NCBI GenBank assembly: GCA_034399535.1
Contig: DASCSS010000010.1
Span: 2,096 to 66,095, forward strand
Origin: Candidatus Thalassarchaeaceae archaeon
Lineage (GTDB): Archaea; Thermoplasmatota; Poseidoniia; Poseidoniales; Thalassarchaeaceae
DNA length: 64,000 nucleotides
Direction: 5' to 3'
A program made the translations under genes and the position numbers. Below, one piece after another: positions 37,572-57,553 of the stretch. Numbering within the stretch: position 1 is the first letter of the stretch; every line of letters begins with the position of its first letter. The notes below the pieces were generated by a model. It searched no databases and had not been told where the DNA came from. It saw only the letters and a list, made by a program, of their open reading frames with translations.

Positions 37572-37697
37572 GACCTGCCCATGTTCAGCCCCATGGTGTT
37601 CGAAGTTCGGTAAACCTCGGGTTAATTGTCCGAGATTACCCTTGAAAGAAGTGCCTTGACCGAAGGGCACTTGTCATCTATCCCTTCTCGCAGAACC

Positions 37698-38801
37698 ATG
37701 AAGGGCGGCCTGAGTGATGACCAGATGGAGCGATATGCCCGACACATCTCTCTTCCGGGGGTTGGTGAGGAAGGCCAGTTGTTAATGCTGAGTTCCTCGG
37801 TGTTAGTCATTGGAGCAGGAGGTTTGGGTTCGCCTGCCCTACTATATCTCTCTGCAGCGGGTGTGGGAAAAATTGGAGTAATGGATCATGACTCAGTTAG
37901 CCTGTCAAACCTACAGAGGCAGGTGATTCACTCAAATGCGGCGATTGGTGAATCGAAGGCCATCTCTGCTGCACGAAGAATTTCGGAACTCAATCCTGAT
38001 GTGGAAGTCGTTGCAATAGGTGAAAAACTGACTCATGAAAATGCAATTGATATTTTCGAAGATTTTGACGTTATATTGGACGGAACTGATAATTTTGAAA
38101 CTAGATATCTGATTGGGGACGTTTGTGAAGTTCTAGAAAAGCCATGGGTTTTCGGAAGCATACACAGATTCGAGGGGCAGGTATCGACATTCAATCTCAA
38201 GGGTGGGCCCAACTACAGGGACCTGTTTCCCCAGTCCCCTCCACCAGAACTTGCACCCAATTGCGCCGAAGCCGGCGTTCTTGGGGTCCTTCCTGGCATT
38301 GTAGGAACGATTCAAGCCACTGAGGCATTAAAGATAATTCTGAATATTGGAGAAACATTAGATGGGAATCTGCTAACAATTAATGCAAAAGACATGGATA
38401 TGAGAAAGCTGTCATTCAACTTGGATGCTAGTAGAGAACGTGTGAGTTCTACAAATTTCCCAACGCAAGTGAGTTTCGCAGAAATCAGTCCAATTGACTT
38501 CGTAGAACGCTCCAATGACGGTTGGGCGCCATTTCTGCTGGATGTTAGAGGGGCAGAGGAAGAGCAGATCACCACATTAGATGGGACAGATTTGCGTATT
38601 CAGCATCTCCAGGTCCCCTCAAGAATTCATGAAATCCCTCAAAACAAAGACATCGTAGTGTATTGCAGGATTGGTAGCAGATCTGCTGCTATTGCCAGAT
38701 TACTAGTTGAGTCAGGAAGACCCCCTGAGAGCATCTACAACCTATTCGGGGGAATTCACCTATGGGCCGACACGGTAGATTCTTCAATAATTAAATACTA
38801 A
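37698..38801 (+). CDS. ThiF/MoeB-family E1-like adenylyltransferase with C-terminal rhodanese domain (MoeB/UbaA-like).
   Basis: …RYARHISLPGVGEEGQLLMLSSSVLVIGAGGLGSPALLYLSAAGVGKIGVMDHDSVSLSNLQRQ… and a rhodanese active-site Cys in VVYCRIGSRS. The ORF is open from a TTG at 37626. ATG at 37698 is preferred. Confidence 0.8.
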   Translation: MKGGLSDDQMERYARHISLPGVGEEGQLLMLSSSVLVIGAGGLGSPALLYLSAAGVGKIGVMDHDSVSLSNLQRQVIHSNAAIGESKAISAARRISELNPDVEVVAIGEKLTHENAIDIFEDFDVILDGTDNFETRYLIGDVCEVLEKPWVFGSIHRFEGQVSTFNLKGGPNYRDLFPQSPPPELAPNCAEAGVLGVLPGIVGTIQATEALKIILNIGETLDGNLLTINAKDMDMRKLSFNLDASRERVSSTNFPTQVSFAEISPIDFVERSNDGWAPFLLDVRGAEEEQITTLDGTDLRIQHLQVPSRIHEIPQNKDIVVYCRIGSRSAAIARLLVESGRPPESIYNLFGGIHLWADTVDSSIIKY

Positions 38802-41845: not shown

Positions 41846-42850
41846 ATGTACGGAAGAGTCATCAGTACTCTTCTCTGGGGGGAAAACGTGAATGACGGAT
41901 TAATCGATGTCGCATACATCTTAGTTGGTTTCATATTCCTAATGACAGGTGGAGAGGGGCTGGTCCAGGGGGCCGTGAGGATTTCTGGGAAGCTCCAAAT
42001 TCCTCCACTACTAGTTGGGTTTACCGTCGTGGCAATTGGTACCTCGTTACCAGAGTTGGCTGTGGCCCTCCAGGCAGTGAGTAGTGGTTCAGAGGAAATA
42101 GCCGTGGGAGGGGTTCTAGGTTCGAACGTGGCAAATGTAATGCTGGTTCTCGGAAGTGCGGCTTTACTGGGCGCATGTTCAGAACCCGACAAAGGAACGG
42201 GAAGAGACTCAATAGCAGTAATGGTATGTACAACATTCTTACTTTTCTTCGTTCTTTTGGGGGAGATTCCCCTCTTAGGAGGGGTAGTAATGGTAATCGG
42301 GCTAGTGGGATACTACTGGTACGCGTACAGGGATGCTAGGAAATCTGGGGAACAGATAGAGCTAGCAGATTCTTGGCTTCCGGATAAGTTGACATTGGCG
42401 GTTCCAACATGCATATTGGGGGGATTAATGATTTGGCAAGGAGCAGTACTTCTGGTCGAAGGAGCCACGGGGGTAGCGACAAAGTACGATATCCCCGAAG
42501 ATGTGATTGGCCTGACGTTGGTTGCACTGGGGACGTCGCTTCCGGAATTAGCAGTAACCCTTGTCGCTGGACTACGAGGGCAAGGTGGGGTGGCCATCGG
42601 AAACGTTCTCGGCTCCAATGTGATGAATATCCTCGGTATCTTGGGCACAGCGGCGATTTACGCCCCGGGAGGAGGTTTGGAGATAGCTGGAGAGTTTGCA
42701 AGCAGGGACATCTGGGTTGTAATGGCCACTTCGGGATTCATTGCCTGGATGCTCCTGTCGGGAAGGGATATTGACAAGAGATCTGGATTTGCAATGATTT
42801 GCACATACCTGGTATACATGGGATACTTAGGATACGTTGGAATTGTATAG
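41846..42850 (+). CDS. Na+/Ca2+ exchanger family (CaCA, YrbG-like) membrane protein.
   Basis: Two alpha-repeat signatures GTSLPELAV(A/T)L, one in each half of a ~10-TM protein. Confidence 0.8.
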   Translation: MYGRVISTLLWGENVNDGLIDVAYILVGFIFLMTGGEGLVQGAVRISGKLQIPPLLVGFTVVAIGTSLPELAVALQAVSSGSEEIAVGGVLGSNVANVMLVLGSAALLGACSEPDKGTGRDSIAVMVCTTFLLFFVLLGEIPLLGGVVMVIGLVGYYWYAYRDARKSGEQIELADSWLPDKLTLAVPTCILGGLMIWQGAVLLVEGATGVATKYDIPEDVIGLTLVALGTSLPELAVTLVAGLRGQGGVAIGNVLGSNVMNILGILGTAAIYAPGGGLEIAGEFASRDIWVVMATSGFIAWMLLSGRDIDKRSGFAMICTYLVYMGYLGYVGIV

Positions 42851-42879
42851 CACTATTACCTCCCTCCAAGTCCGAGTTC

Positions 42880-43467
42880 GTGTCAACAGTCTGTTGCGTT
42901 GTCCTAGCAGCAGGATTCAGTGAGAGGCTTGGTGAAGAAAAGGCCTTGTTGGAAACTGGGCAAGGGCCACTAGTTGGTTGGTTGGTAAGTAGATTAGTAA
43001 GTCATGGCATAAACCCTGTAGTGGTTACTAGAAGAGGCATTGCATCAGAAGTGGAGAGTTCTGTGCTTCCCTGTGAAGTTGTTGTTAATCAAATTCCTGA
43101 AGACGGTAGGACGGGAAGTATCATTGTTGGTATTTCGAAGCTCGATCGGGATTTTGGTGAAGGGTACAGGCTACTGGTAGTACCGGTTGACAGACCTGGT
43201 TTCTCTGATTCTACTTTGATGAGGTTAATCAGTTCAGAGGTAACTTGTTGCCCCTCTAAAGACGGCAGGGGAGGGCATCCCATCCTCCTCTCCAAGCGAG
43301 ACGTGGAAATAATTAGGAGTGCCCCCCATGATGCCCCCTTGCGGTCCATTATTTCGAAAGAAAGATTCCAAGTGAACGATCGATTTCTTCATTTGAATAT
43401 CGATTCTACGGAAGATTTGGAGGACTTTAGGGAATTAATGGAAAACATGGAGGAATCCGGAGTTTGA
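42880..43467 (+). CDS. MobA-like nucleotidyltransferase (molybdenum cofactor guanylyl/cytidylyl-transferase; possibly MocA given neighbouring XDH-family genes).
   Basis: N-terminal VVLAAGFSERLGEEKALL matches the MobA LAGGxSxRMGxDK motif. The ORF is open from 42799, overlapping the upstream gene. GTG at 42880 is preferred. Confidence 0.55.
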   Translation: MSTVCCVVLAAGFSERLGEEKALLETGQGPLVGWLVSRLVSHGINPVVVTRRGIASEVESSVLPCEVVVNQIPEDGRTGSIIVGISKLDRDFGEGYRLLVVPVDRPGFSDSTLMRLISSEVTCCPSKDGRGGHPILLSKRDVEIIRSAPHDAPLRSIISKERFQVNDRFLHLNIDSTEDLEDFRELMENMEESGV

Positions 43468-44365: not shown

Positions 44366-45211
44366 GTGACTCGTGCAGTACTGGAATGGGTGCTGGAACA
44401 GTTGAGCGGAGGGGAGAGGGTGGGTCTTGCCTCAGTAATAGAAGCAAGTGGGAGCGTTCCAGGGAAGCCTGGGGCTAGAATGGCAATCTCATCTGCAGGG
44501 TCAAGGTACGGCACCGTTGGGGGTGCAGGACTTGAGAAATCCGTAGAAGACTCACTAAGAATTATGCTTGAGTCAGAGGACCGTAATTCTAGAAAGAAGG
44601 GGGGCAGGGTAGAGAGCTACATTCTCCATCGAGAGAGGTTGGGGAAGGAAGAAACTGCTTTGGACAGCCTCTGTGGTGGAAAGGTCACGGTTACCATGGA
44701 AATTCTCGAGCCCCTCCCTCACGTATTGATTGCCGGCGGGGGCCATGTTGGTCGCTGTATTGCGATTGTGTGCGATACTCTTGGATGGTCCCATAGCGTG
44801 TATGATGTTCGGGAGGAATTCGCAAATGAAGAGAGGTTCCCCTTCGCAAGCGAATTGCATTCTAGTGAGGTAGAAGAATTCCTCACCATAGAAGGCATAG
44901 AGAACCTGAAGCGTTTTTCTGATGTCCTTCTGTTGAGTCATGACTGGTCTGTGGATGAGAATTTACTAATCCGTTTGCTTGACCAAAGAGGTGATGCCAG
45001 GAGACCCAGAATTGGTGCCATAGGTTCGAAATCCAAGTGGGCATCATTCCGAAAATCGGCAATTGATTCGGGCATTCCGGTAGAAGATGTTGAATCCGTC
45101 AGATGTCCAATCGGCTTGAATATCGGAGCTGACTCCCCTGAAGAAATCGCACTCGCTGTTTGTTCGGAGATTCTTTCACTCGATAAGGGAGTCAATCTCT
45201 CCGAAGACTGA
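44366..45211 (+). CDS. XdhC/CoxI-family molybdoenzyme maturation factor.
   Basis: N-terminal XdhC_CoxI domain (…LASVIEASGSVPGKPGARMAI…YGTVGGAGLE…) and a C-terminal Rossmann-like domain (VLIAGGGHVGRCIA). Confidence 0.7.
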   Translation: MTRAVLEWVLEQLSGGERVGLASVIEASGSVPGKPGARMAISSAGSRYGTVGGAGLEKSVEDSLRIMLESEDRNSRKKGGRVESYILHRERLGKEETALDSLCGGKVTVTMEILEPLPHVLIAGGGHVGRCIAIVCDTLGWSHSVYDVREEFANEERFPFASELHSSEVEEFLTIEGIENLKRFSDVLLLSHDWSVDENLLIRLLDQRGDARRPRIGAIGSKSKWASFRKSAIDSGIPVEDVESVRCPIGLNIGADSPEEIALAVCSEILSLDKGVNLSED

Positions 45212-46480: not shown

Positions 46481-47143
46481 ATGGATGCGGGGAGTATGAG
46501 GAAGGTACTCCTGAGATGGAAGGTTTCCTCGCTTGGCGGACTAAAAGAAATCGGCAGATTGCTAGAAATTGTTGAGAGGATAGAAGTCCTTGGTCACCTT
46601 TCCTTTGGAGAAGAGGGGGTTACTCAGCTAGTGGAGTTAAAGCTGCGTCCAGGACACGAAATAAATGAGATTTCTGAGATGGAAAATTTTGAGTTTATTG
46701 AGATTCATGAGGAAGATGAGAATGGAATATTGGCCAGTATATTGTGCACCCACCCACTTGCCAGGACGGCCATAGAATTGTCAAACATTTACGTAAATCC
46801 GCCTTATGGAATTGATTCAGAGAGGGGAATGGAAATTCGCATGTACGGCCTTTCCGATTCCATCCGTAGGTTAATTGGACTTGTGAGGGCATTGATGCCT
46901 CCAGACAGCATTAGTGTTCAGACATTCAAAACTAACGGATTCTCAGACTATGATTTCCTAACTGAAAAGCAGAGGGATGCCCTAGAGCTCGCCGTTAGGA
47001 GGGGTTACTACGACGAAGACTCCAGCGTCACTCTGAAACAACTAGCAGATGAAATGGGAATTGCCAGAAGCACTATCGGGGAGCACCTCAAAAGGGTAGA
47101 GACGCAAATCATGAAGAAGGCTGGAGAGGAGCTGTCGTCATAA
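46481..47143 (+). CDS. HTH_10 (bacterio-opsin-activator-type) transcriptional regulator.
   Basis: C-terminal …LTEKQRDALELAVRRGYYDEDSSVTLKQLADEMGIARSTIGEHLKRVETQIMKK matches the Bat-type HTH_10 DNA-binding domain. Confidence 0.65.
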   Translation: MDAGSMRKVLLRWKVSSLGGLKEIGRLLEIVERIEVLGHLSFGEEGVTQLVELKLRPGHEINEISEMENFEFIEIHEEDENGILASILCTHPLARTAIELSNIYVNPPYGIDSERGMEIRMYGLSDSIRRLIGLVRALMPPDSISVQTFKTNGFSDYDFLTEKQRDALELAVRRGYYDEDSSVTLKQLADEMGIARSTIGEHLKRVETQIMKKAGEELSS

Positions 47144-47195: not shown

Positions 47196-47768
47196 ATGGT
47201 GCAGTACCGGCTACCGATGCTCCCGCATCCAAAGGAAGAAAGCTGGGGGGCCGAAGTCAATGGAGTTGCAGTCAATGCCGCAATAGAGAGTAATGCGATT
47301 CTTCTAGATGTCCTGAGGGATCAGGTGGGGAGCCTGGGTACCAAGAGAGGATGCGATTTGGGCACCTGCGGTTGCTGCTCCGTGCTAGTTAATGGTAAAC
47401 CGAGATTATCCTGCCTTACGCTGGCCACTGAAGTAAACGGATCAAATATAACCACGGTTGAAGGCCTTTCAGATGGTCATCATTTACATCCCATCCAAGA
47501 GACATTCACTGAGTACGGTGGAAGCCAGTGTGGCTTCTGTACCCCTGGATTCCTAGTCGTCATTTCTTCACTCCTTGAAGAGAATCAAGCGCCTACAGAC
47601 AAGGAAATAAAATCTGCAATAGAGGGAAATTTGTGCCGGTGCACTGGGTTTCAACAAATCGTAGATTCGGTTAGAGCGGCATCAGAAATTCTGGTTTCGG
47701 GGACCAACATAGTGGACTCCACAGCACCGAAGAGTGACCCTCACCCTGGTTTTGAAGGAGATACATAA
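47196..47768 (+). CDS. [2Fe-2S]-binding small subunit of xanthine dehydrogenase / CO dehydrogenase family molybdoenzyme.
   Basis: Plant-type ferredoxin cluster …CDLGTCGCCSV… and a second cluster …CGFCTPGF…CRCTGF…. Confidence 0.85.
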   Translation: MVQYRLPMLPHPKEESWGAEVNGVAVNAAIESNAILLDVLRDQVGSLGTKRGCDLGTCGCCSVLVNGKPRLSCLTLATEVNGSNITTVEGLSDGHHLHPIQETFTEYGGSQCGFCTPGFLVVISSLLEENQAPTDKEIKSAIEGNLCRCTGFQQIVDSVRAASEILVSGTNIVDSTAPKSDPHPGFEGDT

Positions 47769-50548
47769 TGTCGTCAGAAGAAGAAGAGATGGTTGGGTAT
47801 AGGCAGCAACCAGGGAAATTGCCATTCTCAAAACCTGGTTCTGGTGGAAGTGATAGATTCTCAAAAAAATTCGACCCCAAAATGATTCCGGAATCCGAAG
47901 GAGGGGGGTTGGCGCAACCATGGGGGCCACATCGTCACGATGAGTTGGTAACTGGGCAAGTAATAGGCAAACCAACATCATTGGTCGACGGAAAATGGAA
48001 GGTAACCGGTCAGGCACACTACGGGGACGATGTGCGAATCGCCGGAGAGCTGATCGGTCGAATTGTTCGCTCTCCCCATCATTATGCCAGAGTTCTCTCC
48101 GTTGATTGTACAAAGGCACTGGAATTACCAGGCGTAGTCGCAGTGGCTACTGGCCAAGATGCTGCTACCAAATTCGGAGTGTTGCCAGTAACAAAAGATG
48201 AGCATGCAATGGCCGTCGACAAGGTAAGACATGCGGGAGACTTAGTTGCTTGCGTCGCCGCTGAAGACGAGGCTACCGCCAGAGAGGCTGAGAGGCTGAT
48301 AGAGGTCGAATATGAAATTCTCGACCCGATCCACGACATGAGAGATGGTTTGGAAGACAGTGAGAATCCAATCCATGATCGGGGAGATTATCACATAGGA
48401 GAGTCAAATATTCAGAAGAGGGTTTTCCAAGAGTTTGGCGATGTGAAAGGAATGTCCGATTCAGCGATCGCGAGCCACAAAGGGGATTGGTATTTTTCCG
48501 GAGTCAATCACGGATTTACTGAACCTCATGCAGTTGTAGCACACTGGGATCCAACTGGGAGGCTGACTCTCTATACTCCTCAACAAGTCCCACATTACGT
48601 CCACAGGGCGCTGGCGGACGTGCTGGAAATTCCCATGCATCAAATCAATGTTCACAGAACTTTCGTAGGAGGGGGATTTGGAGGGAAATCGGACCCGTTT
48701 CCTCATGAAATGTGTGCTGCTATTCTAGCTAGGAAATCGGGTAGACCCGTCAGGATTACCTTCGATCGAGAGGAAGTTTTCTGGGTCAACAGAGGCCGTC
48801 ACCCATCCCATATCGAAATGAACCTGCATTCCGATTCGGAGGGAAGGATATGTGGGATAGAAACCGATGCACTGATTGATGGGGGAGCATTTGCTTCATT
48901 CGGACATGTGACCACATACTACAATGGCGTCCTCCACACTGCTCCGTACGAAATTGGGGCTTTCCATTACACAGGGGCAAGGGTGTGGACCAACAAACCA
49001 GCTAGTGGCGCAATGAGGGGGCATGGTGCAGTAAACTCGAGATGTGCTGTAGAGGTTGGTTTAGATGATTTATCAGAGAAGCTCTCCGTAGATCCAATTA
49101 CGTTCCGGCTAGCTAATCTTCTACCTCCGCATTCGGCTACAATTACTGGATTTAGGGTCACTAGCATAGGTATGAGGGAGTGCCTAGAGAGAGTAAAGGA
49201 AGCTAGTGGATGGGAGGGGAAATTCAGAAAAATGCCTCTAGGGAAGGGAATAGGGGTCGGTTGTGGCTTCTTCATCTCAGGGAGTGGCCTCCCAATTCAT
49301 TGGGACCCAAACAAATTCCCCCATGCAACAGTCCATCTCAAGATTGACATGGACGGAGGGGTGACAATTCATACTGGTGCTGCAGACATTGGGCAGGGAT
49401 CTGATACAGTAATAGCCCAATCGGTTGCTGAAGTTCTAGGCCTCCCACTTGACATGACAAGGGTCAAATCCAGAGACTCCGATACCTCTCCGGTTGACTT
49501 AGGTTCATATTCCTCACGAGTTACTTTCATGAATGCAAACGCGGCAATTTCCGCTGCAATGGAGATTCGCAATGAGTTGTTAGAAGCGACCGCAGAGATA
49601 ACTGGTGCGAACAAAGAAGCCCTAGTTATCGGGGATCGTCGAATTTTCAAGAAGGGTGACCCTGCAGTAGGAGTGTCATATCTTGAAGCCCTGCATAAAG
49701 CACAAGAAGACAGGGGGGCACTAGTCTCTTCCGGATCATATAGGACACCCCCAATGGGCAGAACTCACAAAGGAGCTGCGGCTGGATTGGCTCCCGCATA
49801 TTCATTCTCTGCATACGTGGCTGAGGTGTCTGTTGACATCGAGACTGGAAGAACTCAAGTTGATAGGGTCTGGGCAGCTCATGATTGTGGTAAGGCGCTA
49901 AACCCCCTCTCTGTCAAGGGCCAGATCATTGGTTCTTGTCACATGGGGATGGGACAAGTGCTGTCAGAAGAAATGAGGTACGGACGAAGTGGACATCTGT
50001 TGAATCCGGACCTATTGGATTACAAAATTCCCAGCATTCACGAAATGCCGGAAGTGATTCCAATTATTGTGGAGTCAAACGATCCGGAGGGCCCGTTTGG
50101 TGCTAAAGAGGCGGGTGAGGGGCCCCTTCTACCAATTCTGCCAGCAGTTTGTAACGCTGTGTACGATGCAATCGGGGTGAGGACCTCTGAATTACCGATA
50201 ACCCCGGATAGGCTTCACAAAGAGATTGAGAAGAAGTGCAGGGAAATGGGCTTGGGGGATCCTCTCGAACTAGAACCGCCGCTGTTGGAATACTCCGAAT
50301 TACAAGAAAGGCTTGAGGAGAGGGCTTCAGAACACTCAGAAAGGGACAGGCGCAGAAGGCTAGACGAAAGTAGAGGATCATATCACAACGGAGCACTGTT
50401 TGGCCTCGACCCAGAAGTCCCTCCGGACGAGGTTGATCCTCGTTGGTCGGTAAGTGTCACCCCCGATGAGGAGTACCTAGAATCCACCCGACTTGCAGGC
50501 AGGGCATGGAAGCACCAAGAAAGGAGGGAAGGGGGTAGTGCCAGATGA
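47768..50548 (+). CDS. Molybdopterin-binding large subunit of a xanthine dehydrogenase family enzyme, with a charged C-terminal extension.
   Basis: Ald_Xan_dh-type domains including GGGFGGK. About 926 aa, against about 780 aa for the typical fold. The last ~140 aa are Glu/Arg/Asp-rich. The start overlaps the upstream stop by 1 nt (TAATG). Confidence 0.85.
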   Translation: MSSEEEEMVGYRQQPGKLPFSKPGSGGSDRFSKKFDPKMIPESEGGGLAQPWGPHRHDELVTGQVIGKPTSLVDGKWKVTGQAHYGDDVRIAGELIGRIVRSPHHYARVLSVDCTKALELPGVVAVATGQDAATKFGVLPVTKDEHAMAVDKVRHAGDLVACVAAEDEATAREAERLIEVEYEILDPIHDMRDGLEDSENPIHDRGDYHIGESNIQKRVFQEFGDVKGMSDSAIASHKGDWYFSGVNHGFTEPHAVVAHWDPTGRLTLYTPQQVPHYVHRALADVLEIPMHQINVHRTFVGGGFGGKSDPFPHEMCAAILARKSGRPVRITFDREEVFWVNRGRHPSHIEMNLHSDSEGRICGIETDALIDGGAFASFGHVTTYYNGVLHTAPYEIGAFHYTGARVWTNKPASGAMRGHGAVNSRCAVEVGLDDLSEKLSVDPITFRLANLLPPHSATITGFRVTSIGMRECLERVKEASGWEGKFRKMPLGKGIGVGCGFFISGSGLPIHWDPNKFPHATVHLKIDMDGGVTIHTGAADIGQGSDTVIAQSVAEVLGLPLDMTRVKSRDSDTSPVDLGSYSSRVTFMNANAAISAAMEIRNELLEATAEITGANKEALVIGDRRIFKKGDPAVGVSYLEALHKAQEDRGALVSSGSYRTPPMGRTHKGAAAGLAPAYSFSAYVAEVSVDIETGRTQVDRVWAAHDCGKALNPLSVKGQIIGSCHMGMGQVLSEEMRYGRSGHLLNPDLLDYKIPSIHEMPEVIPIIVESNDPEGPFGAKEAGEGPLLPILPAVCNAVYDAIGVRTSELPITPDRLHKEIEKKCREMGLGDPLELEPPLLEYSELQERLEERASEHSERDRRRRLDESRGSYHNGALFGLDPEVPPDEVDPRWSVSVTPDEEYLESTRLAGRAWKHQERREGGSAR

Positions 50549-51528
50549 AGATGCCACCTTTCCAAGTTTATTCGCCTACTACTCTGGAAGAAGCCATGAC
50601 TAAGGCTTCGGAACTGTCTGACTCTGGAAATGAGTTCGACTGGATAGCAGGTGGGACTGACCTTCTGCCGAATTACAAATGGCACATCAATGTCAAGAAG
50701 CATGTTATTTCTCTTGCTGCAATCAATGAATTGCATAAGCTCTCCGGAACCCACATAGGGGCAATGGTAAGGATACACGATTTGGCCAGCTCAGAGAATA
50801 CTCACAGTGTTCTAGCCAAGGCTGCTGACTCCATAGCAAGTGTTATGATCAGACGTTCTGGTACTGTCGGGGGAAACATTTGCCTGGACACAAGATGTTA
50901 TTGGTTCAACCAATCAGAAACCTGGAGGGAGTCGATAGATTGGTGCCACAAATGCGACTGTGGCACAGAAGCTGATTGCAGGGTCATTCCAAATCAAAAC
51001 ACTCTTTGTGTAGCGACGTATCAGGCAGATCTGGCTCCAGTTCTATTGTGTCTGGATGCCACAATTCACCTTGCCTCACCCTCTGGAACTCGTTCATTGC
51101 CCCTGGAAGATTTCTTCGAGCTAGATGGGATGACTAGGAATGTCCTAGGAAACGACGAGCTTGTTACTCACGTTACCCTTCCAGATGATTCCGGGGAATG
51201 GGATGGGGACTATCAGAAACTGAGGCAGAGAGAGTCTTGGGACTTCCCGGAAGCAGGGGTTGCTGTTCTATGGAAGAGCGATGGGGATGGAATTCCATCG
51301 GCCCTAAGGGTGGCCACAACTGGTCTGGAGTCAGTACCTGGGATTCACACACAAGCGGCTGAGGCTGCAATTTCAGACTGGAAAGGTGGGGAGTCAATAG
51401 ATGAACTCGCAGAATCGGTCAGGAAGTCCGTGAAGCCCGTCCAGAACACATGGTTCTCCCCTTCGTATAGACGAAAGATGGTGAAGGTCTTAACGAGGCG
51501 TGCTTGCAGGGGTCTACTGGTGAGGTAG
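50545..51528 (+). CDS. FAD-binding medium subunit (CoxM/XdhB-like) carrying a Cys-rich insertion.
   Basis: FAD_binding_5 motifs (…DWIAGGTDLLP…, …SGTVGGNIC…). After GGNIC there is an inserted segment, LDTRCYWFNQSETWRESIDWCHKCDCGTEADCRVIPNQNTLC, with 7 Cys. Overlaps the upstream gene by 4 nt. Confidence 0.8.
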   Translation: MKMPPFQVYSPTTLEEAMTKASELSDSGNEFDWIAGGTDLLPNYKWHINVKKHVISLAAINELHKLSGTHIGAMVRIHDLASSENTHSVLAKAADSIASVMIRRSGTVGGNICLDTRCYWFNQSETWRESIDWCHKCDCGTEADCRVIPNQNTLCVATYQADLAPVLLCLDATIHLASPSGTRSLPLEDFFELDGMTRNVLGNDELVTHVTLPDDSGEWDGDYQKLRQRESWDFPEAGVAVLWKSDGDGIPSALRVATTGLESVPGIHTQAAEAAISDWKGGESIDELAESVRKSVKPVQNTWFSPSYRRKMVKVLTRRACRGLLVR

Positions 51529-52481
51529 TGGTTCGGAAAGTAAATTCCCTAGTCATTAGACTGGTCGTGCTGTCCATTATAATCCCATCAACTATTTCAC
51601 TTGGACAGGAAATTGATGCTTGGGAATTGGGTATTGAGTATCCCAATGAAGATGCATCAAATCCATTTGAGATTTCCAAAGATGGAAAGGTAAAGGTGGA
51701 GTTCTTCGTAGATAATTCTGGATTCGTCGAGATCACAGTTGAGTTTGCATATGAAATCCCATTCGGAGGAGAGGCTGACGGACCGGAAGGAGAGACTGTT
51801 CCCGCGGGTTCTAACGAGTCTTTTGAACTAGAAATCTCAGGGATTGATGTTTTCGACTTCGAAGCTAGGAAAACTGAGGCATTCTCGATTACTGCGACTG
51901 TGACGGCTAGACAGGGCGTCCCTGATCCCTTGAACCCGCAGCAAAAGAAGGAGGGGGACCTCCTCATCCCGACCATCTACGACATGAGAATAGAAGTTTC
52001 GGATCCTGTGGGGCCGATGAATGCTGGCTCCGACACAATCCTCAGGGTAATGGTAACTAACACAGGGAATGTGCAGGATAAGGTTGGAGACGTACAGATA
52101 ACTGATGACTGCCCCCTTCTCACGACCGACAATGGTTTGGACGGCTTGATGGTAGGAAGCATTGCACCGGGAAACACTGCCGAGGCTGATTTGAGGGCAA
52201 CAGCTTCTGAGAGTCATCCTCGACGACATTGCGATATTACGGTGACAGTGTCTTCTAACGGAGCAATGAACACGGGGGGGAGCGTCGTAGTGAGTGATGA
52301 GGCTAGGGTCTCAGTGGAACCTCCTCAAAAAGAGGCAGAGGATGATGGATCGTCCAATCAGAATGATGACCCAGTGGAATCGGTCAAGTCGAATCTCCCT
52401 AGCCCGGGTGGGTTTGCAACCATGTTAACAATGGTAATCGCATCTGCAGTTTTTTCGCCCAGAAAAAAATATTGGAGTTGA
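51504..52481 (+). CDS. Exported hypothetical protein with N-terminal TM/signal, Ig-like domains and C-terminal PGF-CTERM-like TM anchor.
   Basis: N-terminal hydrophobic segment LVIRLVVLSIIIPSTISLG. C-terminus …PSPGGFATMLTMVIASAVFSPRKKYWS (PGF-like motif, TM helix, basic tail). Confidence 0.5.
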   Translation: MQGSTGEVVVRKVNSLVIRLVVLSIIIPSTISLGQEIDAWELGIEYPNEDASNPFEISKDGKVKVEFFVDNSGFVEITVEFAYEIPFGGEADGPEGETVPAGSNESFELEISGIDVFDFEARKTEAFSITATVTARQGVPDPLNPQQKKEGDLLIPTIYDMRIEVSDPVGPMNAGSDTILRVMVTNTGNVQDKVGDVQITDDCPLLTTDNGLDGLMVGSIAPGNTAEADLRATASESHPRRHCDITVTVSSNGAMNTGGSVVVSDEARVSVEPPQKEAEDDGSSNQNDDPVESVKSNLPSPGGFATMLTMVIASAVFSPRKKYWS

Positions 52482-52561
52482 ACAACCAAGATTTTGGAAA
52501 ACCACGATGCGCACTATGCTCAGGAACATATAATCGTGAAGCAATTGTCGCAGCGATATTG

Positions 52562-52578
52562 TTTGGGCCGTAGGCCCA
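52562..52578. other. Perfect 7-bp-arm hairpin (TTGGGCC-GTA-GGCCCAA) in the intergenic region upstream of the DUF4350 gene.
   Basis: The palindrome was read directly. It lies about 22 nt upstream of the ATG at 52601. Confidence 0.3.
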
Positions 52579-52600
52579 ATGAATTGGATAGGGTGAAGAC

Positions 52601-54190
52601 ATGCCTGAAGAGTCTGATTTCGAAAGCCGATTCAACAGGAACATTACGCTTTCATTAATTGGGACTTCGATATTGCTTCTCATTATGCCCATGTTCTTCG
52701 TAGTTGGAAAGGATACCGCTTATTCGGCATATGAGACTGGAGAGGACTACCAAGTCAATAAGATGAGGGACTCATTCGATTATGACGAGGGGTACTATGT
52801 CGCCAATACAATGTCAACTCCAATGCTAGTTAATGACTGGAAGGACCCCCATAGGACGTTGTTGGCAGTTATTGGCCCAGAGAAGCCAATTGACGACACA
52901 GAGGCACAAGAAATATACAAATTCGTTACGGAGAAAGGGGGCAAGGTGATAGTTGCAGCCGACAACACCAATGCAAACAGGCTTGCTGTATTGTTTGGGG
53001 TCAGATACTTCAACTCACCAATGCTGGATGAGAAGCAACATTTCGTTGTCAATGATCAAGAAAATTCAATCTCATGGAAGAATGTGTGGACGGCTGCTTC
53101 AGTGGGACAAGACGTCGACCAAATGTCACCTGGGGCGCTGATGCAAGGTTGCTCGACTTTCCAAATAGAAAATCCGGATGGCCTCAATGATTGTAGGTTA
53201 CCAGTAATGTTCAGAGCGCCGACAGCTCTGAAATTTGAACCTCTGTTGAAAGATGCAACTCATCCCGACCACAGAGAGATAATGACATTGGGCAAAGCCT
53301 CATCGTCTGCATTCATTGACGTTGCAAATGACCAAGACCCAACCAATCTAGAGAATCCCGCACCTGGCGACCTCAGGCTAATCATGAGATTTGACTATCC
53401 AGGGATTACTGTCTTCGACGAGCTTCCAAACGAAGGGCGCGGGGCCTTTTCTTCGGGCGTAGGGGAGCTGGAGGTTACGGGAAGTATTGTTTTCGTCGCT
53501 GATGAAGAAGCGTTCTCCAATATGCTATGGGATCAGAGTATTGCATTAGAGAAGGGACTCAATAGCGATTGTCAGTCTGTCGCTGGATACACTCTGAATA
53601 ACTGCTGGACGAAGGAGATCCTGAACAACAACGAATGGGCTGGAAACGAAAGATTCTTCAAGATATTAGTTCATGACATGATGGAGTTCGATAATGCAAA
53701 TCTCTCGGCCCAGATAAAGAACGACAAGAGTAACTTCCAAGTTGTATTTGACGAAAGCAGGCACATCACGGGCCTCATTTCTGCACCGTTCGTTGAGACA
53801 ATGGGAACAGTTGTACTACTAACTTCAAATCAGTTTCTGAAATGGCTTGTAGTCCTGAACGTTGGACTACTGCTACTTGTGGCAATGATGGTGGTTCCGG
53901 AGAAAGAGAACTGGAGGCACGTTTTCGATCTGACAAAATTCAATCAACGGCCGAATAAGTTGAATCCCGGGGAATACAGGAACAGAGTTCGTAGGGCCCT
54001 AATGACAAAGGTCAGGATTCACCATGATTTAACGCGGGATGAGATGGCTGGAATGCTCCCTCCCGAAGTTCAGGCGATGATCGGCGATCCCCGCCTTGTG
54101 GAATTGGCTTATAGCCAAAGCCGCTCGTACTCACCCCAAGAGTTGCGCAAGTTGATGCAAGCCATTAGGCGATGGGGAAAGAATAACTGA
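52601..54190 (+). CDS. DUF4350-like membrane-anchored protein, first gene of the MoxR/DUF58 operon.
   Basis: N-terminal TM, extracytoplasmic domain containing …TLLAVIGPEKPIDDTEAQEIYKFVTEKGGKVIVAADN… (DUF4350-like), and a C-terminal TM with basic tail. Confidence 0.55.
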   Translation: MPEESDFESRFNRNITLSLIGTSILLLIMPMFFVVGKDTAYSAYETGEDYQVNKMRDSFDYDEGYYVANTMSTPMLVNDWKDPHRTLLAVIGPEKPIDDTEAQEIYKFVTEKGGKVIVAADNTNANRLAVLFGVRYFNSPMLDEKQHFVVNDQENSISWKNVWTAASVGQDVDQMSPGALMQGCSTFQIENPDGLNDCRLPVMFRAPTALKFEPLLKDATHPDHREIMTLGKASSSAFIDVANDQDPTNLENPAPGDLRLIMRFDYPGITVFDELPNEGRGAFSSGVGELEVTGSIVFVADEEAFSNMLWDQSIALEKGLNSDCQSVAGYTLNNCWTKEILNNNEWAGNERFFKILVHDMMEFDNANLSAQIKNDKSNFQVVFDESRHITGLISAPFVETMGTVVLLTSNQFLKWLVVLNVGLLLLVAMMVVPEKENWRHVFDLTKFNQRPNKLNPGEYRNRVRRALMTKVRIHHDLTRDEMAGMLPPEVQAMIGDPRLVELAYSQSRSYSPQELRKLMQAIRRWGKNN

Positions 54191-54200
54191 CAAATGGAGA

Positions 54201-55274
54201 GTGGAAAAGATGAGTGAAACAATACCAGCAGGAGGGATGCCATCACCCGGTCAGGGTGGACATAATGCGGCCTTAGCAAAGAAGGCTGAGGCGGCGCGGG
54301 GTTCGGGCAAGATTGACGAAGTCCTAACGGCAACGGGAGCAATGGGCCAGGCAATTAGCACTGAAGTCCAGAAGGTAATCATCGGAAAGGAACACGTGAT
54401 TGACAACGTAATGGTGGACATTCTGTCCAACGGAAACCTTCTCTTTGAGGATTTCCCTGGTCTTGCAAAGACGCTAATGACAAATACTTTCGCAGATGCT
54501 CTTGGTTGCGATTTCAAGCGTGTCCAATTCACCCCCGATCTGCTGCCCGCAGATATCACTGGGACGAACATCTACGATGCAAAGAAGGGAGAGTTCAGCT
54601 TCAAACCTGGACCGATTTTCTGTAACTTACTTCTTTCTGACGAGATCAACAGGGCGCCTCCAAAGACCCAAGCTGCACTTCTGGAGGCCATGCAGGAAAA
54701 GCAAGTTACTATTGGAGTAGTGACACACAAACTTCCTGCTCCGTTCCTAACTATGGCCACGCAGAACCCGGTTGAACAAGAGGGGACATATCCCCTTCCC
54801 GAAGCACAACTTGACAGGTTCATGATGAAGATGATGGTCGGATACCCGGATAGGGCGGATGAGAACGAGATCCTACAGAGAAGGATAGATCGGAAGAAGG
54901 ACGAGGTCGAGGTCAACAAGGTAACCGATCCTAGCATTGTCGTGAAGATGCAGCAGTCCTGTGAAGAAGTGTATGTAGACAGGTCCGTCAGAGAGTACAT
55001 GGTTGACATAGTGGCCAGAACGAGGGAAGACCCTCGTGTTCTGGTAGGTTCCTCCCCTCGTGGTTCTCAGGCTCTGCTAAAGACGAGTAGAGCCGTAGCA
55101 GCAATGAGAGGAAGGGACTTCGTAACCCCTGACGATGTGAAATCAGTAGCCGAACTGGCCGTTGCACACAGATTAATACTCAAGCCCGAGCATCAAATCA
55201 AAGGTCTAGAAAACGGAGAAGTGGTCAGAGACATCCTACATGGGAAGAATGCCGCAAACGTTCCGACTGTCTGA
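54201..55274 (+). CDS. MoxR-family AAA+ ATPase.
   Basis: Walker A region …FEDFPGLAKTLM…. Walker B/sensor LLSDEINRAPPKTQAALLEAMQEKQVTIG. 357 aa. Confidence 0.9.
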   Translation: MEKMSETIPAGGMPSPGQGGHNAALAKKAEAARGSGKIDEVLTATGAMGQAISTEVQKVIIGKEHVIDNVMVDILSNGNLLFEDFPGLAKTLMTNTFADALGCDFKRVQFTPDLLPADITGTNIYDAKKGEFSFKPGPIFCNLLLSDEINRAPPKTQAALLEAMQEKQVTIGVVTHKLPAPFLTMATQNPVEQEGTYPLPEAQLDRFMMKMMVGYPDRADENEILQRRIDRKKDEVEVNKVTDPSIVVKMQQSCEEVYVDRSVREYMVDIVARTREDPRVLVGSSPRGSQALLKTSRAVAAMRGRDFVTPDDVKSVAELAVAHRLILKPEHQIKGLENGEVVRDILHGKNAANVPTV

Positions 55275-55294
55275 CCAATGCGAGGTAGAAAGCA

Positions 55295-56614
55295 ATGGCT
55301 TGGAGCCGTAAGTCAGCGATGTTCGCGTCCCTGTCAATTGCGATGTATCTGCTGGGCCTAGTTCTACGCAATCAGCAACTCGTGACTGTTGCAGTCGTTC
55401 TTCTATCATTTCTGACTTGGGCGGCCCTGAGAGCTGCTCATGGCGATGTAGCCTCAACCGGAAGAAGAATGGAGGACGCCGTAATGGACGAGGGAAACCA
55501 ACTCCAAAGTATTGTTGCGATGCGGAAGACCTCTTCCTCCCGCGTTTTCGAGGATGGCGAGATTGACGTGACCCTGAGGATTCAGAATCGGTCTGGAGTT
55601 GCCAAGGTACTGGAACTCCGGGACCGCGTCCCCGAAGTAATGAGGATAAAGAAGGGCGCAAATTACGTTCTCATGGAGATTGGCCCAAAGAGGGAGACGG
55701 AGATTTCCTACACCATCGAGACTCCGCTAAGGGGATTCTACACCATCGGCCCCGTGTGCATAAGGGTGCAGGATGAGCTGGGCCTATTCCATAATGAGAA
55801 GGAGATCCTACTCTACGATGATTTCCTAGTTTTCCCAAAGATGGAAGACATCAAGGATGCGATGATAAAGAGCAGGGTCCCAAAGATTTTCACCGGTGCG
55901 GTGAACATCAGGAACCCTGGAGAGGGGTCCAACTTCTACAACCTGAGAGAGTATATCCCAGGCGACCCCATGAAGAAGGTAAACTGGAATGCTACTGCCA
56001 GGCAAGATGGCAAGATGATGGTAAACGAATACGAGAGGGACGCAGTTAGTGACGTAATTCTGATCGTTGATAGCAGAGCCGTTAGCGAGACGGGCCCTGT
56101 AAGTCGAAACTCTTTGGTTTATAGCACCAGAGCAGCGGCAAGCCTTACCCAATACTTTCTCTCTAGAAGGGATTCTGTTGGCCTTGTCGTATATGGCGAT
56201 GAAATTGTCTCAGTGGATAGGGACACCGGCAAGAAGCAGTTGTACATTATTCTAACAAAGCTTGCTGGTGCAATGGCAAAGGGCAATACTCCCCTAAAGA
56301 TAGTGACAAACAGAATTATGCCACATATTCACCGAGGGAGTCCAATCATCATCCTCTCACCACTAGAGGATGACCCCACAATAATAGAGGCAGTTAGGGA
56401 CCTGAGAGCCAGGAATTTCGAGGTGACAGTGCTCTCCCCTAGCAGTCTTGAATTCGAATTCGATGCAAGGAGAATAGACAGAACTGGATATGAAGTGCTG
56501 AAGACTGAGAGGGATATCCTGATGACTGAGCTCAGAGGTCTGGGGGCATATGTGATGGACTGGGAGCCTGACATGTTGCTGTTCACGGCCTTGACCGGGG
56601 CAAGGGGTTTCTGA
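55295..56614 (+). CDS. DUF58-family protein (VWA-like), MoxR partner.
   Basis: DUF58 signature …REYIPGDPMKKVNWNATARQDGKMMVNEYERD…. N-terminal TM helices. Confidence 0.8.
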   Translation: MAWSRKSAMFASLSIAMYLLGLVLRNQQLVTVAVVLLSFLTWAALRAAHGDVASTGRRMEDAVMDEGNQLQSIVAMRKTSSSRVFEDGEIDVTLRIQNRSGVAKVLELRDRVPEVMRIKKGANYVLMEIGPKRETEISYTIETPLRGFYTIGPVCIRVQDELGLFHNEKEILLYDDFLVFPKMEDIKDAMIKSRVPKIFTGAVNIRNPGEGSNFYNLREYIPGDPMKKVNWNATARQDGKMMVNEYERDAVSDVILIVDSRAVSETGPVSRNSLVYSTRAAASLTQYFLSRRDSVGLVVYGDEIVSVDRDTGKKQLYIILTKLAGAMAKGNTPLKIVTNRIMPHIHRGSPIIILSPLEDDPTIIEAVRDLRARNFEVTVLSPSSLEFEFDARRIDRTGYEVLKTERDILMTELRGLGAYVMDWEPDMLLFTALTGARGF

Positions 56615-56620
56615 GGTGAA

Positions 56621-57553
56621 GTGATGGCTGAAGAAAGTGGCAAGGGTCCGGTAGATACGTCTCACCTGTACGATGGGAAAGTTGTCAGATCATCGGCACC
56701 CAGTAGGAAAAGAGCTGCTGGTACCCTAAAGAGGGACTCTGCAATACCTGACGATGCAGTCCCGGAAGTGGAGATTCCTGGATGGATTGAGACGATTTTC
56801 GGGGGACCGGTATTATCCACTCGCAAGTTCCTACCACCAGACAGGATGGTCGTCTCACTGCAAATCTGGTCTTCAGCGACTCTGCTAGCCTTGGTTTTCC
56901 TTACGTTCATGCTCACCCCGGTGTCAGGAACAGCATGGTTCTCGATCTCAAATTTCATTGGAATGGGGGTTCTCGGAGTAATTGTACACTGGGGGCTTAT
57001 GCTGATTGGGCTTTTCGGGGGTTTCTTTGGAGTCTCACAGAGAGATCAGCGTGCACTATTGGCTTCCTACATTGCATTGATTTTGGTGACGGTCAGATTC
57101 GCTGGCAGTAAGGTAGAGTATGGCTTGAGCTTCCTTCCAGAAGACGAGACCGTCCAGAAGCTACTTCTAATCATCTACGCAGTCCTTCTGGTGATGTACG
57201 TTGAGATTTCCAGCGGGATAATCAGGTTCTCGATGCTCGATACGTCAATCAGGACTGGCGAGGTCTACGTGATGAACGTGAACGCGATTTCTCGCAGGTA
57301 TAGCCGTGCTCTAGGGATCACCCCCGCAATTGCTGGCTTCGTTGCCTTGCTGACGCTTTTCATCAATCTGATTATTCCTGCTTTCGTGGGCATTCTCGAT
57401 CCTGTGGCTGCGAACAGGCTCAAAGAAAGTGTGGAGTTGACTAGCGTCTACGGTGTAGCCCTGGGAACAATCCTGGTTTTCATCATCATTGCTTCGATGT
57501 TTGCAATTAACCTGCCATTGCGCATCCAGCAGTACATTGAGCGTCAGGCTTGA
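56621..57553 (+). CDS. Polytopic membrane protein, terminal gene of the MoxR/DUF58 operon.
   Basis: About 7 TM helices. No catalytic motif recognised. Confidence 0.5.
   Translation: MMAEESGKGPVDTSHLYDGKVVRSSAPSRKRAAGTLKRDSAIPDDAVPEVEIPGWIETIFGGPVLSTRKFLPPDRMVVSLQIWSSATLLALVFLTFMLTPVSGTAWFSISNFIGMGVLGVIVHWGLMLIGLFGGFFGVSQRDQRALLASYIALILVTVRFAGSKVEYGLSFLPEDETVQKLLLIIYAVLLVMYVEISSGIIRFSMLDTSIRTGEVYVMNVNAISRRYSRALGITPAIAGFVALLTLFINLIIPAFVGILDPVAANRLKESVELTSVYGVALGTILVFIIIASMFAINLPLRIQQYIERQA

Follow-up and report, generated by a model that had tools for sequence, protein, structure and literature searches.

The archaeal DNA examined here, 64,000 nucleotides of contig DASCSS010000010.1 from a Candidatus Thalassarchaeaceae archaeon of Marine Group II (MGII, order Poseidoniales; the whole stretch is hereafter called the window), encodes a three-subunit molybdoenzyme of the xanthine oxidase family with a cysteine-rich insertion in its flavin adenine dinucleotide (FAD) subunit. 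With reasonable confidence, we read this insertion as the [4Fe-4S]-binding FAD-subunit loop of a cytoplasmic enzyme that resembles HcrABC, the 4-hydroxybenzoyl-coenzyme A (CoA) reductase (HCR) of Thauera aromatica. The enzyme is probably a ferredoxin-coupled molybdoflavoenzyme in which an HcrB-type predicted [4Fe-4S] loop has been conserved. Its FAD, [2Fe-2S], and Mo-site motifs are intact, and XdhC and MobA-like maturation genes are co-located with the operon.

The FAD subunit (beta) matched the Pfam families FAD_binding_5 (1e-33) and CO_deh_flav_C, and a gene caller run on the source contig (100.8 kb, an ENA metagenome) returned identical 926- and 327-residue products for the Mo and FAD subunits. 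Positions 50872-51054 of the window correspond to residues 110-170 of this protein. Nine cysteines were counted in the translation (residues 113, 118, 134, 137, 139, 145, 155, 169, and 321), seven of which are packed into 43 of the 327 residues; the binomial chance of such clustering is about 2e-5 (calculated for a fixed segment). The original prediction had listed these seven, residues 113 to 155, and its peptide proved exact, with all codons matching the DNA (C137 at 50953-55 and C139 at 50959-61; the others are given in Table 1). It had also held that ordinary CO dehydrogenase (CODH) and xanthine dehydrogenase (XDH) medium subunits lack such a loop, which was borne out by HMMER alignments: those of the loop-less homologues (4zoh_B glyceraldehyde oxidoreductase, CutM/CoxM, nicotinate dehydrogenase, and others) split around residues 114-160, breaking at about 113 and resuming at about 154-167, while those of HcrB, PaoB, and 5y6q_B run unbroken across this region. 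Judged from these alignments, residues 114-160 are a true insertion relative to the loop-less CoxM/XdhB-type subunits.

The conservation of the cysteines is a stronger argument than their clustering. In an alignment of 100 sequences (A1; 30-93% identical to the query, mean column identity 35%), C118, C134, C145, and C155 account for four of only eight invariant columns, the others being G37, G110, R229, and D233. The same four cysteines are invariant in all 80 loci returned by a genome scan that included one genome per GTDB species, where FAD-subunit identity to the query ranged from 62-78% in MGIIb (Thalassarchaeaceae) and 54-59% in MGIIa (Poseidoniaceae) to 40-44% in Thermoplasmata and 38-43% in KSB1, Planctomycetota, and Acidobacteriota. 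These identities also assign the window to an MGII archaeon, probably one of MGIIb. An exhaustive HMMER search of 1.84 billion cluster representatives with the FAD subunit detected 9861 relatives with E-values of 1e-3 or lower, of which 307 reached 1e-30 or lower; among the best 150 of these representatives, the loop and its four cysteines were present in 128 of the 128 full-length sequences. By this spread the loop is the hallmark of a large and already recognized enzyme subfamily and not a rarity. In a word-index protein search, over 3900 of the candidates scored were relatives with E ≤ 1e-10; the 120 listed were nearly all from metagenome collections, organism names, where given, were Poseidoniales or Euryarchaeota, and several carried the Joint Genome Institute (JGI) label "4-hydroxybenzoyl-CoA reductase subunit beta". 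The claim for seven cysteines was upheld in part only: C118, C134, C145, and C155 are conserved family-wide and C139 within Poseidoniales, while C113 is variable and position 137 is occupied by C, A, or E. Four cysteines, possibly five, are functionally constrained rather than seven.

Comparison with known structures identified the type of loop. In a search of all PDB chains, the top match of the FAD subunit was HcrB of T. aromatica (1rm6_B, E 6.4e-44), followed by PaoB (5g5g_B, E 3e-23) and the medium subunit of a Methylobacillus aldehyde oxidase (5y6q_B, E 1.7e-19). The only four cysteines in the HcrB insertion (122, 138, 146, and 155, with ligand numbering taken from the sequence alignment) pair one-to-one with C118, C134, C145, and C155. 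An AlphaFold2 model of the FAD subunit, with A1 as the input alignment, had a mean predicted local distance difference test score (pLDDT) of 94.7, with 79-91 in the loop and the lowest values (79-83) at residues 130-150. When this model was compared with the PDB by Foldseek, 1rm6_B ranked first with a template modeling score (TMq) of 0.90 and a root mean square deviation of 2.0 Å, against 0.83 for 5y6q_B and about 0.76 for loop-less subunits; by these global scores, including a TM of 0.90 for the superposition on 1rm6_B, the fold is HcrB-like. The spacing of the cysteines is C-x15-C-x10-C-x9-C in the query (MGII), C-x15-C-x7-C-x8-C in HcrB, and C-x9-C-x8-C-x18-C in PaoB, and on this comparison the loop is of the HcrB type with a small order-specific elaboration. 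Homology to the HcrB [4Fe-4S] loop is, at the level of sequence and model, strongly supported. The HcrB insertion reportedly carries the extra [4Fe-4S] cluster, and the figures reported for the HCR structure are a 40-residue insertion and 16.5 Å. As worded in its title, the structure paper describes an additional [4Fe-4S] cluster in HCR. That the query loop is merely structural, formed by disulfides or a Zn site with no Fe-S cluster, is highly improbable: the cysteines match the only four in the HcrB insertion, they are absolutely conserved across sequences that are 30-45% identical, and disulfides are unlikely because the protein is cytoplasmic.

Part of the loop is order-specific. All of the ~50 Poseidoniales loci share the loop DTRC[FY]W[FYI]NQxExWRxSI[DE][WY]C[HY]K[CAE]DC[GD]TxxDCRV[IV][PA]NQNxxC, in which C139 is invariant and lies within a three-residue insertion that Thermoplasmata, bacteria, and HcrB lack. 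The Poseidoniales loop could on this basis bind its cluster differently, with C139 replacing or supplementing a canonical ligand; ligand swapping would be one example and a thiol that supports oxygen tolerance through protection or redox sensing another, and either direction of electron flow would fit. The model is least confident in just this region. Against this stand the four canonical cysteines, which are still invariant in Poseidoniales so that no ligand has been lost, and the neighboring C137, which is freely swapped for A or E; we regard the proposal as improbable.

The partner subunits were found to agree with an HcrABC-like assembly. As had been proposed, the operon is laid out as [2Fe-2S], Mo, and FAD subunits, with Pfam domain sets that fit all three genes, and this order is kept in 80 of 80 loci. 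Start and stop codons overlap as ATGA at both gene junctions, and the three genes are translationally coupled with the FAD subunit last. The purine-rich AAAGGAGGGA at 50520-50529, within the end of the Mo-subunit gene, precedes the start of the FAD subunit by 16-25 nt and resembles an internal Shine-Dalgarno-type site, which would be consistent with coupled translation. Among PDB chains, the Mo subunit (alpha) matched HcrA (1rm6_A) at E 5.8e-190, with the next structure at 8e-79. All MGII sequences, and HcrA too, retain Gln (TPQQ), Arg (AMRGHG), and Glu (AGEGP) at the Mo site; together with the XdhC maturation factor, these residues are general traits of the xanthine oxidase family. Two extensions distinguish the MGII Mo subunit, one of about 65 residues at the N terminus (47768-47960) and one of about 105 residues at the C terminus (50230-50548, residues ~822-926). 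Both have motifs common to MGIIa and MGIIb (GYRQQPGK..PGSGGS..IPES.GG..QP.G.H.HD and Y.NG.LFG.DP..P..E..W...LAG.AW..E.RH, respectively), and both are absent in Thermoplasmata, KSB1, Acidobacteriota, and HcrA. The N terminus of the small subunit, MVQYRLPMLPHPKEESWGAE, has no twin-arginine motif or hydrophobic h-region when read by eye.

Table 1. Coordinates in the window of the FAD-subunit loop, the operon, and upstream genes.
Feature	Coordinates	Strand	Basis or remark
FAD subunit (beta, 327 aa) of the HcrABC-like xanthine-oxidase-family molybdoenzyme	50545..51528	+	Pfam, NCBIfam, PDB, AlphaFold
Inserted loop, residues 114-160, predicted [4Fe-4S]-binding subdomain, C-x15-C-x10-C-x9-C	50884..51024	+	HcrB type
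C113 codon	50881-83	+	Codon checked in DNA
C118 codon (HcrB counterpart Cys122), predicted first ligand of the cluster	50896..50898	+	Invariant; HcrB DTRC motif
C134 codon (HcrB counterpart Cys138), predicted second ligand of the cluster	50944..50946	+	Invariant
C137-D-C139, Poseidoniales-specific loop part	50953..50961	+	Locus alignment; C139 invariant in the order, C137 = C/A/E
C145 codon (HcrB counterpart Cys146), predicted third ligand of the cluster	50977..50979	+	Invariant
C155 codon (HcrB counterpart Cys155), predicted fourth ligand of the cluster	51007..51009	+	Invariant
Small subunit (gamma, 190 aa), two [2Fe-2S] motifs	47196..47768	+	Pfam Fer2_2 (6.8e-30), Fer2/Fer2_3
Molybdopterin subunit (alpha, 926 aa)	47768..50548	+	Pfam Ald_Xan_dh_C, MoCoBD_1, MoCoBD_2
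HTH_10 transcription regulator, directly upstream of the operon	46481..47143	+	Pfam HTH_10 9.8e-18; position kept in MGIIb loci
XdhC-family molybdenum cofactor insertion/sulfuration chaperone	44366..45211	+	Pfam XdhC_CoxI and XdhC_C; syntenic in MGIIb
MobA-like nucleotidyltransferase	42799..43467	+	Pfam NTP_transf_3 9.9e-25; syntenic upstream in MGIIb

A path for electrons can be proposed from this arrangement. C118, C134, C145, and C155 would hold one [4Fe-4S] cluster on a subdomain of about 47 residues beside the FAD, and this cluster would add one station to the usual wire of Mo-pterin, [2Fe-2S], [2Fe-2S], and FAD. There it would exchange electrons with an external one-electron carrier, most plausibly ferredoxin, and not with NAD+ or O2; the loop implies a one-electron partner such as ferredoxin that docks near the FAD, whichever direction the electrons run. 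The original prediction had gone further and concluded that the enzyme is reductive rather than oxidizing, on the view that HcrB is the only characterized member with such a cluster. This view is outdated, as PaoABC of Escherichia coli, an oxidizing aldehyde oxidoreductase, also has an extra [4Fe-4S] cluster in its FAD subunit (PMC5270733; bioRxiv 10.64898/2026.07.15.738685). Because an oxidizing enzyme holds a cluster of the same type, the loop alone is no proof of reductive flow, and the reductive assignment is not established; it is nonetheless tenable because HCR has a xanthine-oxidase-type Mo site that is able to run in reverse (PMC10420851). We lean slightly, and tentatively, toward oxidative hydroxylation with electrons leaving via the [4Fe-4S] cluster, in keeping with an aerobic archaeon, and rank an HCR-like reductive dehydroxylation slightly below it, as somewhat unlikely.

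An enzyme that follows the logic of PaoABC would be an oxidizing hydroxylase or dehydrogenase acting on an aldehyde, an N-heterocycle, or an acyl-CoA, with the [4Fe-4S] cluster as the electron exit to oxidized ferredoxin or another carrier and from there to the respiratory chain. We hold this to be a credible but tentative alternative. That PaoB and 5y6q_B align through the loop speaks for it, as do the aerobic host and the strong conservation of the enzyme, which is present in all of the ~50 Poseidoniales species-representative loci recovered by the scan and has alpha subunits that are 68-85% identical across both MGII families, as would fit a core catabolic role. The Gln/Arg/Glu triad of the Mo site is likewise typical of hydroxylases but does not discriminate, since HCR itself has the same triad. 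The subunits nevertheless resemble HCR more than PaoABC, with an E-value of 3e-23 for PaoB against 6e-44 for HcrB, cysteine spacing of the HcrB type, and a small subunit that is without a twin-arginine translocation (Tat) signal. Orthology with PaoABC was itself rejected, as the scores reached only 326 of 1180 bits for the PaoC model NF041671 and 128.6 of 322 bits for the PaoA model NF008514.

A genuine HCR-type enzyme would instead pass electrons from reduced ferredoxin through the [4Fe-4S] cluster, FAD, and two [2Fe-2S] clusters to Mo, where 4-hydroxybenzoyl-CoA or a similar phenolic acyl-CoA would be reductively dehydroxylated, to benzoyl-CoA in the former case. HcrA and HcrB are the closest characterized homologues by wide margins, the loop spacing is HcrB-like and unlike that of PaoB, homologues of the beta subunit are automatically annotated as HCR by JGI, and the HCR model is the top NCBIfam match of both alpha and beta; with gamma, this model came second, at 171.1 bits against 172.7 bits for the glyceraldehyde-dehydrogenase gamma model. 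However, when scored against the NCBIfam equivalog models for HCR, all three subunits fell below the cut-offs: gamma reached 171.1 bits for TIGR03193 (cut-off 257.8), alpha 814.3 bits for TIGR03194 (994.55), and beta 242 bits for TIGR03195 (404.55). As a calibration, an Acidobacteriota alpha subunit reached 1042.1 bits against the same cut-off of 994.55. The query alpha is 44% identical to HcrA, compared with 49-53% for the Acidobacteriota alphas. In a neighbor-joining tree of the large subunit (a distance method, rooted on CoxL and with one characterized HCR sequence), HcrA grouped with Acidobacteriota in 50 of 50 bootstraps and MGII with KSB1/Planctomycetota in 50 of 50, while MGII and HcrA grouped together in none of the 50, which places the Mo subunit in a clade sister to that of HcrA. 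Neither the 64-kb window nor the ±10-kb flanks of ~50 Poseidoniales loci contain a gene for an aryl-CoA ligase (including 4-hydroxybenzoate-CoA ligase), benzoyl-CoA reductase, or Box protein. The host is moreover an aerobic surface-ocean heterotroph (PMC6461757), and PaoABC shows that a loop of this kind also serves oxidizing enzymes. We therefore rate a genuine HCR as rather unlikely; on sequence criteria, the enzyme is a paralogue, and not a demonstrable orthologue, of HCR. Comparison of active-site motifs did not discriminate, as even the Acidobacteriota sequences scoring above the HCR cut-off depart from HcrA at these positions.

Other identities were tried and rejected. CO dehydrogenase (CoxMSL) does not fit, as the active-site loop VAYRCSFR is absent from the large subunit, GAMRGHGAV is found where mycobacterial CoxL has GVAYACSFR, and the FAD subunit has the insertion. 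For xanthine dehydrogenase, a Ser occupies the position of bovine Glu802 (hand alignment), and the XdhA models gave 515-522 bits against cut-offs of 780-916. Literature searches linking this enzyme to MGII, or furoyl-CoA dehydrogenase to HCR, found nothing; HmfABC could conceivably be an oxidizing acyl-CoA member of this clade.

Hints about the substrate were obtained from related bacterial operons. In Acidobacteriota, the HCR-like operon (L070:1146-11852, and also L067, L073, L074, L078, and L080) has genes for a TetR regulator, two enoyl-CoA hydratases, an aldehyde dehydrogenase, an amidohydrolase_2 protein, and a rhodanese on its flanks. It also adjoins a diiron protein whose sole NCBIfam match is BoxB (benzoyl-CoA 2,3-epoxidase), at 231 bits for a cut-off of 499. 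This context, which includes operons with an alpha subunit above the HCR cut-off, suggests that HCR and an oxygen-dependent acyl-CoA epoxidase are combined in a hybrid route in soil Acidobacteriota and that HCR-type enzymes may feed an aerobic benzoyl-CoA route, to the advantage of the HCR-type alternative set out above. In the same direction, boxB was reported among the highly expressed MG-II genes in a Red Sea metatranscriptome study (PMC5069720). The closest bacterial relatives of the MGII alpha subunit, from KSB1 and an unclassified bacterium, have two aldehyde dehydrogenases, an enoyl-CoA hydratase, a thiolase, an acyl-CoA dehydrogenase, and a 3-hydroxyacyl-CoA dehydrogenase as operon neighbors. 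Taken together, the bacterial neighborhoods point to CoA-thioester substrates across the wider family, with HCR-like enzymes beside oxygen-dependent CoA pathways, and the substrate of the MGII enzyme is possibly an aromatic or alicyclic acyl-CoA. As a separate observation, the KSB1 acyl-CoA dehydrogenase beside the HCR-like operon has homologues in MGII that are 52-64% identical to it. These lie ~8-9 kb upstream of the operon in several genomes (L051:340-1473, L011:671-1804, L019:1-1116, and L043:57-1190) and at 22-726 of the window, 47 kb from the operon; the best NCBIfam matches of the acyl-CoA dehydrogenase were acryloyl-CoA reductase and cyclohexane-1-carbonyl-CoA dehydrogenase, both below cut-off.

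Several points weigh against a ferredoxin-coupled, HcrABC-like enzyme with a canonical cluster. The spacing of x15/x10/x9 in the query differs from the x15/x7/x8 of HcrB, and the order-invariant C139 lies between ligands 2 and 3, such that other residues could serve as ligands. The operon has no adjacent ferredoxin gene. The acyl-CoA hint derives from bacterial operons in which the FAD subunit shares only 38-43% identity with the query, while the MGII and Thermoplasmata neighborhoods are uninformative on the substrate, the neighbors in Thermoplasmata being housekeeping genes; the nearest non-MGII relative is on a 1.6-kb contig, the context of which is equally uninformative. Finally, our preference for one direction of flow is drawn from priors on habitat and family, and the nearest characterized homologue is a reductase.

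The surroundings of the operon include further genes related to the molybdenum cofactor. The HTH_10 regulator would, from its position, control the operon, and the MobA-like protein, the gene of which also adjoins the Thermoplasmata operons, is a candidate molybdopterin cytidylyltransferase. Upstream, a ThiF-rhodanese (MoeB-like) gene at 37626-38801 precedes the MobA-like and XdhC genes, and this cluster is interrupted by a 2-oxoacid dehydrogenase E1-like gene, an Na/Ca exchanger, a ZIP transporter, and an S8 peptidase. Downstream, the block at 51504-57553 that follows the operon encodes two unannotated proteins (325 and 529 residues), a MoxR AAA+ ATPase, a DUF58 protein, and another unannotated protein. 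Its order and strand are kept in essentially all Poseidoniales loci, with MoxR 77-93% identical, which may reflect a functional linkage or merely conserved gene order. Outside the operon, the one obvious Fe-S redox protein of the window is an HdrD/GlpC-like iron-sulfur oxidoreductase of 665 residues (11921-13918; two CCG Cys-rich domains and a 4Fe-4S dicluster domain), which is not adjacent to the operon. Two loci with bacterial labels both bear an MGIIa-type locus: L045 (CAXRAI010000016.1, labeled Salinimicrobium) is complete, with the FeS-Mo-FAD genes followed by genes for a hypothetical protein, MoxR (81% identity), DUF58, and chorismate synthase, and L042 (NZEQ01000021.1, labeled Verrucomicrobiales) has FeS-Mo-FAD and two downstream hypothetical genes up to the locus end. 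These are probably archaeal contigs that were mis-binned into bacterial metagenome-assembled genomes.

The loop is thus textbook for its subfamily, and what is lineage-specific is the C139 insertion together with the N- and C-terminal extensions of alpha. No planktonic archaea are more abundant in the oxic surface ocean than Poseidoniales, and HCR-type enzymes are regarded as a hallmark of anaerobic aromatic degradation. Caution is needed here, as automatic "4-hydroxybenzoyl-CoA reductase" labels in oxic-ocean metagenomes do not equal evidence of such degradation. MGII surveys described complete molybdenum-cofactor biosynthesis with nitrate reductase, present in three genomes, as the only named user (PMC6461757). 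The operon is a good candidate for the main reason that streamlined MGII archaea retain this cofactor, and the enzyme may be the principal molybdoenzyme of this archaeal group, which is abundant worldwide. Once the substrate is known, a further reaction could be counted in the carbon turnover ascribed to MGII. A bolder idea, which we think has a small chance of being correct, is that Poseidoniales use an HCR-type, ferredoxin-driven reductive dehydroxylase to channel phenolic acids of phytoplankton, such as 4-hydroxybenzoate, in the form of CoA esters into an aerobic Box-type benzoyl-CoA pathway. If so, the C139 insertion and the alpha extensions would be adaptations to working in air, and the same hybrid route would operate in the aerobic Acidobacteriota with a BoxB-like gene beside the HCR-like operon.

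Among known systems, the closest is HcrABC of T. aromatica (PDB 1RM6/1SB3; HbaBCD in Rhodopseudomonas palustris), which has the same three-subunit architecture, with a gamma subunit carrying two [2Fe-2S] clusters, a Mo alpha subunit, and an FAD beta subunit. It is the best PDB match for both alpha and beta, its beta insertion of ~40-47 residues has four cysteines that align one-to-one with those of the query, and the Mo-site Gln/Arg/Glu residues are common to both. The query differs in that its alpha and beta subunits are 44% and 32% identical to those of HcrABC, all of its subunits are below the equivalog cut-offs, and it has the extra order-invariant C139 and the alpha terminal extensions of ~65 and ~105 residues; its host is an aerobic planktonic archaeon with no aromatic-CoA genes nearby. 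PaoABC of E. coli (5G5G/5G5H) is likewise a xanthine-oxidase-family heterotrimer with an extra [4Fe-4S] cluster on an inserted loop of its FAD subunit, and it shows how such a loop can serve as an electron exit in an oxidizing enzyme. It is more distant from the query (PaoB E 3e-23, PaoC E 4e-69), its PaoB cysteines are spaced differently, and it is periplasmic, PaoA bearing a Tat signal, whereas the small subunit of the query is without a twin-arginine motif. The aldehyde oxidase of Methylobacillus sp. KY4400 (5Y6Q), the structure of which presumably contains a [4Fe-4S] cluster, has a medium subunit with four loop cysteines that aligns with the query through the loop, although at E 1.7e-19, and its large subunit is distant (E 1.3e-52). 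The loop-less subunits (CoxM/CutM, XdhB, 4ZOH beta, and QorM) have the same FAD_binding_5 and CO_deh_flav_C fold and the FAD motifs AGGTDL and T-x-GGN, but they are without equivalents of residues 114-160 and reach a TMq of only ~0.76.

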